Source of the DNA: Escherichia coli
GTDB lineage: Bacteria > Pseudomonadota > Gammaproteobacteria > Enterobacterales > Enterobacteriaceae
Length of the DNA: 64,000 nt
Assembly (NCBI RefSeq): GCF_003334255.1
Contig: NZ_QOWU01000007.1
Strand: one strand, 5' to 3'
Within the stretch, counting starts at the first letter, position 1, and every line of letters begins with the position of its first letter. Positions 15,577-27,624 of the stretch are shown piece after piece. A program made the translations under genes and the position numbers. The notes beneath the pieces were generated by a model. The model saw only the letters and a list, made by a program, of their open reading frames with translations, did not search any database and was not told the origin of the DNA.

Positions 15577-17325
15577 TCACCCCTTGTGAAGTAACTCCAT
15601 AAATGCCTCATATCCTGTTAACCCGGCAATAATCTCCGCCGGATGCTGACACAATATGCTTGCCAGATAGCTAAATATTTTTAGCTCATGACGCGCATCG
15701 GCGGCGGCGCAGGCGATCAAGACATGGTTAATGACTTCGTTATTCACCTCAACTGGTTGGGCGAGGGTAATAAAAAATCCACGAAAACGTCGCTCCTGTT
15801 CGCTCCAGCAATGTGGGATGGCGAGGCGATTAACAATCAGGTTTTCACCTTCGCCTTCGCGGGCGATGATGCGTTGTGCTTCATCGGCGGTAATATGGTG
15901 TTGTGCGACTAATTGCGCACAAATTTGCCGGGTAATATGTTGCCAGCTTTCACCGCGTACATTCGAATAATGAAAACTTCCGGGGGCAGAGAAAAAACGC
16001 TCCGGCTGTTGGCGAATAAATGCCGTCGCCAGAAAATGTTTTATTTGTTCGATACCGGCAGCCGTAATGATATTTTTTACGGTGATGTAATTATTTACCG
16101 CGTCATCCAGTAAATAATGGCTGTTGTTAATGATCAATAACGGCTCAATCTCTTCGCGAATGGCAACAAGTTCGCTTAAGCTACGGGCAATAATTACCCG
16201 ACAATTTAAAACATCGCGCTCAATGGCGAGCTGATTAATAGTGGCAATCGCGTTCTGGTCCGAGAGCAAAATGATCGGCTGGCGTTCGTTTTGATGCCGC
16301 TCCAGCGCACAGGCAAAATACAAACCGATCAGATCGCTGTCGAAAAGGGGAATATCGAGCTGTTCACGCAGTAGCGTAATAAAGTGCAGACTCATATCAA
16401 AGGCCGCAGGCCAGGCGGCTTTCAGGTTATTCATGCTGCTCTGGCGGTGCTCAGCAATCCACACTGGTGCGGCAAGGCAACGTAATAAATGCCCGGTAAT
16501 ATTCTCAACCAGCTGCGCATCAATAATATTCAATGACGCGATGCCCGGCACCCTTTGCAGCAACCCCTGCACATTATCGGCTGAAATTACCTGCGCTTGC
16601 TGATGCTGTTTCTCTATCAAACCCGTCAGGGTTCTTACAGCGTTATCACCAAGAAACAGACCGCTATGTTCAACGATTTGTTTTATCTCGTCACCGGGAT
16701 ATTGCGGCCACTCATCGGTCAGTTGATTACGCAGGGCGTAAATCGCCAGAATCAGGCTGGAGAGATAATCACCCTGCATGAGCGGCCAGCGGTGTTGGTT
16801 GTCGCAGGCCGTGGATAAATGCTGAAGGTTGTCTCGTGTTATGCCCGCCAGCGGAATTAAAAACGGATCTTTGCGCAGCAAGTTCGCCAGCAAGATAACG
16901 CGTTTCTCTTCTGTCTCATCAATGAAATGGCCCAAACCAGGGCGGCTGGCCAGGCAACAAGTGCGTTCATAACGCTGTTTTAACCGGGGCAGACGCTCTG
17001 CTACCCACGTTTCTGGCAAATTAAGCGCCGAGGCGAGTTGCGCACGGGGAGTGAAAGTATTCAGTAATAACAGCGCCAGCAGCCGATCGTCGTTATCGTG
17101 CTTTTGCAGCAACTGAAAAAAGCTGCGGCGCTCGAAGATTTCCAGCTGATAGCCCGCACTACCACTGGCGAAAATGCGGGCTTTGCCGTTAAGGGTGAAG
17201 TTGAGATAGTCAATATCACGCAGGATGGTCCTGCCTGAAACGCCAGTCTGTTGCGCCAGCTCGCCAGGCGTGCGCGGCTGTTGCTCCAGCAGATCGACAA
17301 TCTTTAACTGGCGTTCGTTTAGCAT
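15577..17325 (-). CDS. frvR: frv operon transcriptional regulator
   Basis: 582-aa ORF; N-terminal HTH region; 1-bp overlap with frvX. Confidence 0.85.
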   Translation of the reverse strand: MLNERQLKIVDLLEQQPRTPGELAQQTGVSGRTILRDIDYLNFTLNGKARIFASGSAGYQLEIFERRSFFQLLQKHDNDDRLLALLLLNTFTPRAQLASALNLPETWVAERLPRLKQRYERTCCLASRPGLGHFIDETEEKRVILLANLLRKDPFLIPLAGITRDNLQHLSTACDNQHRWPLMQGDYLSSLILAIYALRNQLTDEWPQYPGDEIKQIVEHSGLFLGDNAVRTLTGLIEKQHQQAQVISADNVQGLLQRVPGIASLNIIDAQLVENITGHLLRCLAAPVWIAEHRQSSMNNLKAAWPAAFDMSLHFITLLREQLDIPLFDSDLIGLYFACALERHQNERQPIILLSDQNAIATINQLAIERDVLNCRVIIARSLSELVAIREEIEPLLIINNSHYLLDDAVNNYITVKNIITAAGIEQIKHFLATAFIRQQPERFFSAPGSFHYSNVRGESWQHITRQICAQLVAQHHITADEAQRIIAREGEGENLIVNRLAIPHCWSEQERRFRGFFITLAQPVEVNNEVINHVLIACAAADARHELKIFSYLASILCQHPAEIIAGLTGYEAFMELLHKG

Positions 17326-20593: not shown

Positions 20594-20908
20594 TTACGGC
20601 AGGTAAAACACTTCTTGCAGCTCGCTACTCACCGGGCTGTTATCCGGGTTAGCGGGCATAACATCGGTCATATATTTCCACCAACGTTGGCAAACATCAG
20701 TGCTGGCAACCGCATTCCAGCGTTCTTCAGATTCAATCTCTACCATGGCAAACAGCAGATTACGCGCTTTGTCGAGATAGATGGCGTAGTTATGCGCACC
20801 GTGAGATTTCAGCACTGCTTCCAGTTCTGGCCAGATGGGATTATGCCGACGCTGATACTCTTCGTGGGCGTCGGGGTTTACCTGCATGACAAAGGCTTTG
20901 CGGATCAT
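20594..20908 (-). CDS. rhaM: L-rhamnose mutarotase
   Basis: 104-aa [33 protein letters not shown] matches recalled RhaM/YiiL. Confidence 0.9.
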
Positions 20909-20917
20909 GTTTGCTCC

Positions 20918-21742
20918 TTACAGCGCCAGCGCACTGGCGAGTGGCGTAACGCCGAAACGCTTGCCGAGCGCTATCAACTCTTCACGGCTGATGGTCTGTT
21001 TCATGCCGCCCATCGAATAAACCTTCACTAATACTTGTGCTGATTTTTCTGCGGTGTCGATTAAACCGAAGGTTTCATCCAGCGTCGGTCCGCTGCCGAA
21101 GACGCCGTGGAAGGGCCACAACACCAGCGAATGTTTTTGCATCTCTTGTGCGGTCGCCTGGCCGATTTCGTCCGTGCCGGGCACCATCCACGGCAAAATG
21201 CCAACGCCATCCGGGAATACCACCAGACACTCGGTGCTGCCTTCCCACAGTTGGCGAGTGAAGACCGCGGTGTCGTTTTCAAGTACATAGGTGAGGGCGA
21301 TCAGGTTGGTGGCGTGGCAGTGCATGATCACCCGATCTTTGCCGTTGGTGGCTTTAATGCGCTCGCAGTGGGAAAGGAAGTGAGCCGGAAGTTCGGAAGT
21401 GGGGACGGCTTCGTTGGTTAACCCCCAAAGAATGTGGTAGCCCGCGCCGTCGCTGTCGACTTTTACGATGCCTAAGTTAGCCGCAGGATCAAGCTGGACG
21501 TTACGGAAGAATTTGCCCGAGCCGGTGACAATAAACGGTGTATTTGCCAGTAAAGGCATGGGCTGGCTGAGCGGGATATAGCGCGGTTGTTGGTGGAAAT
21601 TGTCGTGATATGGTGCGATATCGGCGTCATCCAGGCGTAGCGTCAGGTTGCCGCCGTTGCGCTCATCCCAGCCTTTCAGCCAGGCGTCGGTGGTGGCTTT
21701 GATCATTCCCTGGACAAACCAGGACTGAGTAATGTTTTGCAT
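20918..21742 (-). CDS. rhaD: rhamnulose-1-phosphate aldolase
   Basis: ORF-track ORF 20918-21814; true start taken as [32 protein letters not shown] (274 aa). Confidence 0.9.
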
Positions 21743-21767
21743 GTTCTGTGTTCCTGTAAATTCGGTG

Positions 21768-21822
21768 TTGTCGGATGCACGACCCGTAGGCCGGATAAGG
21801 CGCTCGCGCCGCATCCGGCAGT
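21768..21822. repeat. REP element between rhaD and rhaA
   Basis: gtaggccggataaggcgctcgcgccgcatccggca. Confidence 0.75.
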
Positions 21823-21824
21823 GT

Positions 21825-24834
<3,010 letters not shown>

Positions 24835-25671
24835 ATGACCGTATTACATAGTGTGGATTTTTTTCCGTCTGGTAACGCGTCCGTGGCGATAGAACCCCGG
24901 CTCCCGCAGGCGGATTTTCCTGAACATCATCATGATTTTCATGAAATTGTGATTGTCGAACATGGCACGGGTATTCATGTGTTTAATGGGCAGCCCTATA
25001 CCATCACCGGTGGCACGGTCTGTTTCGTACGCGATCATGATCGGCATCTGTATGAACATACCGATAATCTGTGTCTGACCAATGTGCTGTATCGCTCGCC
25101 GGATCGATTTCAGTTTCTCGCCGGGCTGAATCAGTTGCTGCCACAAGAGCTGGATGGGCAGTATCCGTCTCACTGGCGCGTTAACCACAGCGTATTGCAG
25201 CAGGTGCGACAGCTGGTTGCACAGATGGAACAGCAGGAAGGGGAAAATGATTTACCCTCGACCGCCAGTCGCGAGATCTTGTTTATGCAATTACTGCTCT
25301 TGCTGCGTAAAAGCAGTTTGCAGGAGAACCTGGAAAACAGCGCATCACGTCTCAACTTGCTTCTGGCCTGGCTGGAGGACCATTTTGCCGATGAGGTGAA
25401 TTGGGATGCCGTGGCGGATCAATTTTCTCTTTCACTGCGTACGCTACATCGGCAGCTTAAGCAGCAAACGGGACTGACGCCTCAGCGATACCTGAACCGC
25501 CTGCGACTGATGAAAGCCCGACATCTGCTACGCCACAGCGAGGCCAGCGTTACTGACATCGCCTATCGCTGTGGATTCAGCGACAGTAACCACTTTTCGA
25601 CGCTTTTTCGCCGAGAGTTTAACTGGTCACCGCGTGATATTCGCCAGGGACGGGATGGCTTTCTGCAATAA
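24835..25671 (+). CDS. rhaS: AraC-family activator RhaS
   Basis: 278-aa [47 protein letters not shown]; C-terminal AraC HTH. Confidence 0.9.
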
Positions 25672-25744
25672 CGCGAATCTTCTCAACGTATTTGTACGCC
25701 ATATTGCGAATAATCAACTTCGTTCTCTGGCCGAGGTAGCCACG

Positions 25745-26593
25745 GTGGCGCATCAGTTAAAACTTCTCAAAGATGATTTTTTTGCCAGCGACCAGCAGGC
25801 AGTCGCTGTGGCTGACCGTTATCCGCAAGATGTCTTTGCTGAACATACACATGATTTTTGTGAGCTGGTGATTGTCTGGCGCGGTAATGGCCTGCATGTA
25901 CTCAACGATCGCCCTTATCGCATTACCCGTGGCGATCTCTTTTACATTCATGCTGACGATAAACACTCCTACGCTTCCGTTAACGATCTGGTTTTGCAGA
26001 ATATTATTTATTGCCCGGAGCGTCTGAAGCTGAATCTTGACTGGCAGGGGGCGATTCCGGGATTTAACGCCAGCGCAGGGCAACCACACTGGCGCTTAGG
26101 TAGCATGGGGATGGCGCAGGCGCGGCAGGTTATCGGTCAGCTTGAGCATGAAAGTAGTCAGCATGTGCCGTTTGCTAACGAAATGGCTGAGTTGCTGTTC
26201 GGGCAGTTGGTGATGTTGCTGAATCGCCATCGTTACACCAGTGATTCGTTGCCGCCAACATCCAGCGAAACGTTGCTGGATAAGCTGATTACCCGGCTGG
26301 CGGCTAGCCTGAAAAGTCCCTTTGCGCTGGATAAATTTTGTGATGAGGCATAGTGCAGTGAGCGCGTTTTGCGTCAGCAATTTCGCCAGCAGACTGGAAT
26401 GACCATCAATCAATATCTGCGACAGGTCAGAGTGTGTCATGCGCAATATCTTCTCCAGCATAGCCGCCTGTTAATCAGTGATATTTCGACCGAATGTGGC
26501 TTTGAAGATAGTAACTATTTTTCGGTGGTGTTTACCCGGGAAACCGGGATGACGCCCAGCCAGTGGCGTCATCTCAATTCGCAGAAAGATTAA
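25745..26593 (+). pseudogene. rhaR: rhaR interrupted by an in-frame TAG at 26351-26353 (codon 203 of 282); predicted product lacks most of the C-terminal AraC-type DNA-binding domain
   Basis: ORF-track ORFs 25571-26353 and 26369-26593 are in the same frame; sequence reads GAT GAG GCA TAG TGC AGT GAG CGC; recalled reference protein reads ...[14 protein letters not shown]... at this point; GTG start at 25745 (MAHQLKLL). Confidence 0.6.
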
Positions 26594-27624
26594 TTCGCCA
26601 TGCCGATGCCGACGATGTTAGCGGCGACAATAATCACCACACAACCGAGGCTCAACACCGTTACCGGACGGCGTCCTGCATTGTTCCACTCTTTCAGCAC
26701 CAGCCCGACGATACCGCCGCACAATACATAGAAACTCATATGCAGCATCCAACTGATGTAGTCATACTGCGCCGGAATGCGGGCGTGGCCCCAGGCATAG
26801 AAAAAGAATTGCAGATACCACATCAACCCGCCCAGTGTCGAGAGTAACACATTGTGAATGATCAGCGATTTTGCCAGCGAGAAGTCGGCTTTTAGCGACA
26901 AATCCTTCACTTTTGCCAGACGAATAAAACAGAAACCGAGGTTAATGATCGCGCCGCCGCCCATGATGACAACATAGCTTGGCAGAGCGACATACAGTGG
27001 ATCGACGCCAAGTGCGGCAGCGGCTTCATGCATCGGTTTTGCGGCGTTCATCGCAAAGGACATCCCGGCAGAGAAAATGCCGCACATCACCGCCAGCACC
27101 AGCCCTTTTTTCAGATTGAACTCTTCGGCTTTAATGCCCATCTTGCGCTCTTTCAACTGCCCGGCGCGAGTTACAATCCCTACGCCAATCAGCGCCACCA
27201 GAACGCCGAGCAACGTCATGCGTCCGCCTTCGGTGCTAATCAACACATCGAAATTGCCGTTGATAATTGGCGTCATCAGCGTACCGACAATCAACGTAAT
27301 GCCAATGGCGATGCCAATTCCCATCGACATGCCGAGATAACGCATGGTCAGGCCGTAGTTGATATTACCGATCCCCCACATAGCGCCGAACAGAAAAACA
27401 GGCAGTAGCGTAGAGAGACTAAACGAGCTGTAATACGCCCAGAAATTCGGTAGTAACAGGGCGCTGATGGCCCACGGCAGAATAATCCACGAAACAATCC
27501 CACCGACTGACCACATGGTTTCCCATGACCATTTTTTTACTTTTTTGAACGGAGCGTAAAAACAGGCTGCACTGGCCGCGCCGATCAAATGCCAAAATAT
27601 CCCCATCGTAATCGCGTTACTCAT
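26590..27624 (-). CDS. rhaT: L-rhamnose-proton symporter
   Basis: 344-aa polytopic membrane ORF; 4-bp convergent overlap with rhaR stop. Confidence 0.9.

Follow-up and report, generated by a model that had tools for sequence, protein, structure and literature searches.

A naturally occurring amber allele of rhaR, S203*, that very probably inactivates the rhamnose activator RhaR in a K-12-like Escherichia coli lineage

Introduction

The rhamnose genes of E. coli are controlled by a cascade in which RhaR, with rhamnose, activates rhaSR, and RhaS in turn activates rhaBAD and rhaT (PMC9429829, citing Egan and Schleif 1993 and Wickstrum 2010). The closest described natural lesions are those of STEC CC119, for which PMC10132054 reports seven strains with a rhaR frameshift as the only rha lesion and with delayed and weak fermentation of rhamnose. 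According to the same paper, CC119 strains with added in-frame changes in rhaB or rhaT were rhamnose-negative, an in-frame 3-bp insertion in rhaB went with complete loss of rhamnose fermentation, and O26:H11 with a frameshift in rhaS was also rhamnose-negative. Across 60,472 E. coli, rhaR and rhaS are among the transcription factors enriched for deleterious polymorphisms (PMC10401003). Recurrent inactivation of rhaR in E. coli is already published (PMC10401003), and the gene, the cascade, and the effect of its loss are textbook matter.

Here we describe a 64-kb stretch of E. coli DNA (the window) in which an in-frame stop codon interrupts rhaR. A sequence-only reading of this DNA had proposed that the stop truncates RhaR before its DNA-binding domain and that this one base could silence the whole rhamnose regulon.

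Results

An amber codon interrupts rhaR within the first helix-turn-helix

The in-frame TAG lies at window positions 26351-26353 on the plus strand, where the local reading is GAT GAG GCA TAG TGC AGT GAG. Counted from the RefSeq start (GTG at 25745), it is codon 203 of the 282 codons of rhaR, which ends with TAA at 26593, as the sequence-only reading had stated; the two open reading frame pieces that it had joined (25571-26353 and 26369-26593) do share one frame, their starts being 798 = 266 x 3 bases apart. The 849-base gene differs from that of K-12 MG1655 at a single position (848/849 bases identical, 99.9%), a level of identity that holds for many other genomes too. The differing base is 26352, which is A in the window and C in MG1655, so that a TCG Ser codon becomes TAG; the K-12 residues that the sequence-only reading had given (...DEASCSER..., with Ser at this position) were therefore right. 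The parts of the interrupted gene are as follows.

26351..26353, plus strand: premature amber TAG at rhaR codon 203; the causal base is A at 26352, which is C in K-12 and in all of the 5,409 complete genomes compared.
25745..26353, plus strand: 5' part of rhaR, residues 1-202, covering the whole effector-binding/dimerization domain and the linker; the DNA-binding domain breaks off at the turn of the first helix-turn-helix (HTH1).
26354..26593, plus strand: 3' remnant of rhaR, codons 204-282 and the TAA, encoding the recognition helix of HTH1 and the complete second helix-turn-helix (HTH2); untranslated from the rhaR start.
26369-26593, plus strand: 74-aa open reading frame inside the 3' remnant, with a TTG start and no obvious Shine-Dalgarno sequence.

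When Pfam was applied to the repaired RhaR, AraC_binding was placed at residues 22-152, HTH_AraC at 185-226 and 237-276, and HTH_18 at 199-275. By this map the AraC-type DNA-binding region spans residues 185-276, and the stop falls inside its first helix-turn-helix, with the remainder lost. MarA residues 15-115 align to RhaR 180-280, which sets RhaR residue 203 opposite MarA residue 38. On the basis of the MarA structure and the AraC-family consensus, we take residue 203 to be where helix 2 ends and the turn of HTH1 lies, directly before the recognition helix, which in RhaR would begin at SERVLRQQF. The Pfam map and the MarA alignment bear out the earlier claim that most of the C-terminal helix-turn-helix domain is lost: the 202-residue product keeps the rhamnose-binding/dimerization domain but has neither the recognition helix of HTH1 nor any part of HTH2. 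AraC-family helix-turn-helix domains are needed for DNA binding, which is presumed to be lost here because neither piece of the interrupted gene holds a complete DNA-binding domain. From this domain architecture we infer that truncated RhaR cannot bind the rhaSR promoter.

The two pieces (residues 1-202 and a reinitiated 74-aa C-terminal piece) might nevertheless retain regulatory activity, together or separately. The N- and C-terminal domains of AraC-family proteins fold independently, and the N-terminal domain of RhaR (residues 1-172) was crystallized as a stand-alone domain (PDB 5u93, 5u9e); moreover, the TTG of the 74-aa open reading frame is in frame and 15 bases past the TAG. However, the break is in the HTH1 turn, inside the DNA-binding domain, and not in the interdomain linker; neither piece has a complete HTH1 (the 74-aa frame begins in the middle of its recognition helix), and the TTG lacks a recognizable ribosome-binding (Shine-Dalgarno) sequence. 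We regard such fragment activity as barely conceivable.

The allele is real, rare, and borne mainly by one clone

A 61-mer centred on the TAG had an exact match in 0 of 5,409 complete RefSeq E. coli genomes, and every one of them matched at 98.4%, with one mismatch. Codon 203 is TCG in MG1655, G1/2, BA92, and FDAARGOS_1249. The alignment to MG1655 and other E. coli that the sequence-only reading had proposed as a check thus returned one differing base and no complete genome with the TAG. Absence from all of these genomes, together with the fact that a single base is involved, would be expected if the TAG were a sequencing or assembly error in a strain that truly has TCG.

The truncated protein is nonetheless on record. 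The exact 232-aa product that starts at the ATG at 25655 and ends ...CDEA was found on 26 contigs in NCBI, ENA, and Logan, metagenome assemblies among them, and has NCBI accessions CAM2880396.1 and CUJ91930.1; the S203* product has therefore already been deposited in public databases. Exact look-ups of the truncated product in its 202-aa (RefSeq start) and 260-aa (GTG at 25571) versions gave no match, because gene callers chose the ATG at 25655. A literature search for this particular rhaR nonsense allele found no paper describing S203*.

We read 24 of the carrier contigs, which come from different samples, and found the identical allele in each. In 18 of the 24, the sequence was identical or near-identical to the window (three loci shown and 15 places collapsed as similar). 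The three loci, L006 (GCA_965136505.1), L008 (ERZ773217), and L011 (Logan run ERR1014592), had 0 differences from the window over 9-21 kb, and L006, the longest, also carries a SNP in frvR at 17161 that is private to the window lineage. The TAG is found on other haplotypes as well (see below). The presence of the same allele in separate assemblies from NCBI, ENA, and Logan excludes a one-off sequencing error, and an error reading of any kind is extremely improbable. We conclude that the amber allele is real, rare, and borne mainly by one clone.

A search for carriers via the 74-aa downstream fragment (P0002, 50 contigs) added no TAG carriers. It led back to L013, a copy of the window's own haplotype; the nine loci fetched besides have C at 26352, and their fragment comes from N gaps in metagenome scaffolds or from other lesions (K190* in L014 and a 1-bp insertion in the error-rich L016). 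Seven independent metagenome scaffolds (L015 and L017-L022) contain gaps of 100-300 N inside rhaR at nearly one place, equivalent to about 26023-26306, and these gaps make gene callers emit the same 74-aa C-terminal “fragment” though the TAG is absent. N gaps inside rhaR are thus a source of false pseudogene calls. L014 (GCA_047262345.1, a 5.57-Mb contig) has rhaS split into pieces of 129 and 148 aa; its K190* (AAA to TAA, 282-residue numbering) is equivalent to window position 26312.

The source is a natural K-12-like strain

Although colinear with the yihU-metF region of K-12, the window is not K-12. It differs from MG1655 by 13 SNPs and two indels: rhaB has an in-frame deletion of 3 bases, and the spacer between rhaA and rhaD is much shorter. 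Among complete genomes, that of G1/2, from the faeces of a healthy person in Germany, is the closest, with 8 differing positions in 48.5 kb; it has both indels and most of the SNPs that separate the window from MG1655. Four bases are private to the window in comparison with MG1655, G1/2, and BA92: one giving yihX G8V, one synonymous change each in fdoG and frvR, and the amber in rhaR. We also considered a laboratory K-12 derivative or an artificial change, and rejected both on the 13 SNPs and two indels, most of which are common to the faecal isolate G1/2. The source is a natural K-12-like, phylogroup-A-type E. coli, and the TAG is among its few lineage-specific changes.

The yihX change (window position 3045, codon 8, GGT to GTT) lies in the N-terminal FDLGNV segment of this HAD-type glucose-1-phosphatase; it adjoins the presumed nucleophile Asp6 and could affect activity. 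FDAARGOS_1249 has two tandem IS5-family transposase copies between frvA and rhaM (L023 11213-13346), in a region that is otherwise near-identical.

An amber codon raises the question of suppression, and the sequence-only reading had suggested read-through in a supE/supF background. UAG is the classic suppressible codon, and a Ser-inserting suppressor would restore the wild-type protein, so a supE/supF/supD-type tRNA, or efficient natural read-through, could in principle yield full-length RhaR and a working regulon. Against this, the 64 kb hold no tRNA gene and no other gene that is amber-interrupted relative to its relatives, the strain belongs to a natural isolate lineage and not to a laboratory suppressor strain, and the stop is conserved in no relative. 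Natural read-through of UAG in E. coli runs at roughly 1 in 1,000 or below. Programmed recoding would be marked by conservation of the stop among orthologues, and 5,409 of 5,409 complete genomes differ from the window by one base at this place. Suppression or programmed recoding is therefore unlikely, and we consider it highly improbable that a suppressed amber leaves the regulon working.

The rest of the rha cluster is intact

The remaining features of the cluster, listed below, surround the interrupted gene.

24835..25671, plus strand: rhaS, intact, upstream of rhaR.
24548..24834, between the divergent transcription units: rhaSR / rhaBAD promoter region, with no differences from MG1655 listed.
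23081..24547, minus strand: rhaB, intact, 488 aa, with one CAA (Gln) of a triplet repeat fewer than K-12, as in G1/2.
21825..23084, minus strand: rhaA, intact, DNA-identical to G1/2 and MG1655.
20918..21742, minus strand: rhaD, intact; coordinates transferred from G1/2 (locus offset 501).
20594..20908, minus strand: rhaM, intact; coordinates transferred from G1/2.
26590..27624, minus strand: rhaT, intact, 344 aa, convergent with rhaR.

Between 19954 and 39034 the window departs from G1/2 at base 26352 alone, and PGAP calls the rha genes intact in G1/2. This DNA identity across rhaM-rhaT, 26352 apart, upholds the earlier statement that the structural rha genes are undamaged. Because rhaS, the promoter region, rhaB, rhaA, rhaD, rhaM, and rhaT are all intact, the lesion is purely regulatory; no gene follows rhaR in its operon, so the stop cannot be polar on another. 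The allele is also recent, since there is no secondary decay in the other rha genes.

The interrupted gene lies where rhaR is expected (downstream of rhaS in the rhaSR operon, divergent from rhaBAD, and convergent with rhaT) and is identical in sequence, bar one base, to the characterized K-12 gene; what it lacks is one uninterrupted frame for the ligand-binding domain and the double helix-turn-helix, the frame being broken at codon 203. Judged by its sequence, it is a disrupted allele of rhaR and not a functional member.

Several smaller variants were seen in the cluster. At the rhaB triplet repeat (window position 24199), the window and G1/2 lack one GTT, which changes QQQ to QQ in RhaB (488 versus 489 aa); MG1655, BA92, and FDAARGOS_1249 have the longer repeat, and TAG-carrying contigs show both lengths. 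The loss of this Gln is probably harmless, because it is found beside an intact rhaR in G1/2. The rhaD-rhaA spacer (21743-21824) is 82 bp in the window, as it is in G1/2 and BA92, and about 450 bp in MG1655 and FDAARGOS_1249; the junction at 21776-21820 is GC-rich, palindromic, and REP-like, and the difference looks like the presence or absence of a REP cluster. Codon 73 of rhaT (window position 27407) is CGA (Arg) in MG1655 and CTA (Leu) in the window, G1/2, BA92, FDAARGOS_1249, and all of the TAG contigs, so that among four complete genomes and seven TAG-carrying contigs Arg is found in the K-12 reference only. The stop codons of rhaR and rhaT overlap in the palindrome TTAA at 26590-26593 (TAA on each strand).

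The TAG occurs on more than one haplotype

The TAG is found on at least two clearly different flanking haplotypes. In L009 and L010, and in two places like them, rhaB has the extra GTT, the rhaA-rhaD spacer is long, and the bases at 25567 and 26920 are T and G, the latter as in the TCG-carrying FDAARGOS_1249. L007 has T at 24397 and at 25306, as does the TCG-carrying BA92. In L012 there are six private differences, three of which lie close to a contig end; it looks like a noisy copy of the window's haplotype. Three markers fail the four-gamete test (the rhaB GTT indel, 25306 C/T, and 26920 A/G), a comparison that rests on short contigs, several of them metagenome assemblies. Because all four combinations of TAG/TCG with these markers are seen, the allele would seem to have arisen more than once or to have been moved by recombination, or else some of the metagenome contigs are chimeric.

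This pattern could also mean that the same TAG recurs on several backgrounds through a mutational hot spot or positive selection for rhaR loss, that is, by adaptive convergence and not drift. The TAG is indeed found with both states of three nearby markers that are also seen with TCG, haplotype C has the long rhaA-rhaD spacer, like FDAARGOS_1249, and deleterious polymorphisms are in excess in rhaR according to the GLASS study (PMC10401003). Other rhaR nonsense alleles allow this to be set against a baseline. From a K-12-type rhaR, 100 one-step nonsense mutations are possible, at 84 codons. We looked up ten other truncated products of the same RhaR, and 6 of the 10 have been recorded, each on between 9 and 52 contigs: by the older numbering (312 residues), in which S203* is S233*, these were Q245* (52 contigs), R256* (30), Q268* (16), Q184* (14), Q257* (10), and S198* (9). 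S203*, with 26 contigs, falls midway in this series; it belongs to a large set of rare rhaR knock-outs in E. coli and does not mark a hot spot.

Besides the existence of alleles that are as frequent or more so (Q245* and R256*), several of the variant haplotypes come from metagenome assemblies and are possibly chimeric, L012 is noisy, short-tract recombination explains the pattern equally well, and in a collection of hundreds of thousands of assemblies one should expect any single base change to recur. We therefore judge a hot spot or selection to be unlikely. The more specific proposition, that the identical C-to-A change arose separately on several E. coli backgrounds because loss of RhaR is advantageous in some gut or host niche, is a shade less likely still; if it were true, the TAG would be a convergent adaptive knock-out of the rhamnose cascade and not a drifting defect. 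Given how often other rhaR nonsense alleles are seen, the pattern is explained most economically by ordinary recurrence or by recombination within a very large sample.

Discussion

A stop is present where intact orthologues have a sense codon, it removes a required domain, and the base call is real. The window thus very probably carries a naturally occurring loss-of-function nonsense allele of rhaR, S203*, produced by one C-to-A transversion.

The sequence of events that would follow in a carrier can be outlined from the cascade. If truncated RhaR is unable to bind the rhaSR promoter, rhamnose would no longer boost rhaSR transcription, RhaS would remain near its basal level, and the induction of rhaBADM and rhaT would be slow and weak. 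The predicted phenotype is delayed, weak use of rhamnose and not a null; a leaky phenotype is predicted because the CC119 rhaR-frameshift strains ferment late and weakly. For the same reason, the proposal that the whole regulon is silenced was overstated, since in those strains, as described in PMC10132054, fermentation was delayed and weak and not absent. The phenotype could still be fully negative: rhaB of the window lacks one Gln codon, and in-frame changes in rhaB or rhaT of CC119 went with complete loss.

We predict that a carrier would be slow or weak in its use of rhamnose; this could matter for biochemical identification, for screening on rhamnose-MacConkey, and for rhamnose-inducible expression in that background. 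Beyond strain typing the importance of the allele is small, and the presence of the same base change on different haplotypes is the only residue of mild interest. S203* is one more example of the repeated inactivation of sugar-regulon activators, such as rhaR and rhaS, in natural E. coli.

Compared with the rhaR of K-12 (WP_001336056.1, an AraC/XylS-family activator of the rhaSR operon), the allele has the same locus and the same synteny (rhaMDAB / rhaSR / rhaT); the difference is that K-12 has TCG at codon 203, whereas the product of the window ends at residue 202, without most of the DNA-binding domain. The other rhaR nonsense alleles affect the same gene and a K-12-type protein through a one-step change, and the position of the stop alone distinguishes them from S203*.

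The rhaR frameshift of CC119 (O165:H25 / O172:H25) is similar in being a natural inactivating rhaR lesion with the other rha genes present. According to PMC10132054, however, the CC119 allele arose by deletion of 1 bp, belongs to a different phylogroup, and is fixed throughout the clonal complex, whereas the lesion described here is a nonsense mutation, is found in K-12-like backgrounds, and is rare (0/5,409 complete genomes). The rhamnose-negative lineages (the O26:H11 rhaS frameshift, PMC10132054, and O157 RhaS A243T, PMC10401003) resemble the window in that the function was lost via regulators and not via structural genes. They differ in that the gene hit is rhaS, whose product is the direct activator of rhaBAD and rhaT and whose loss gives a clear negative, whereas RhaR works one step earlier in the cascade and losing it gives a leaky phenotype.
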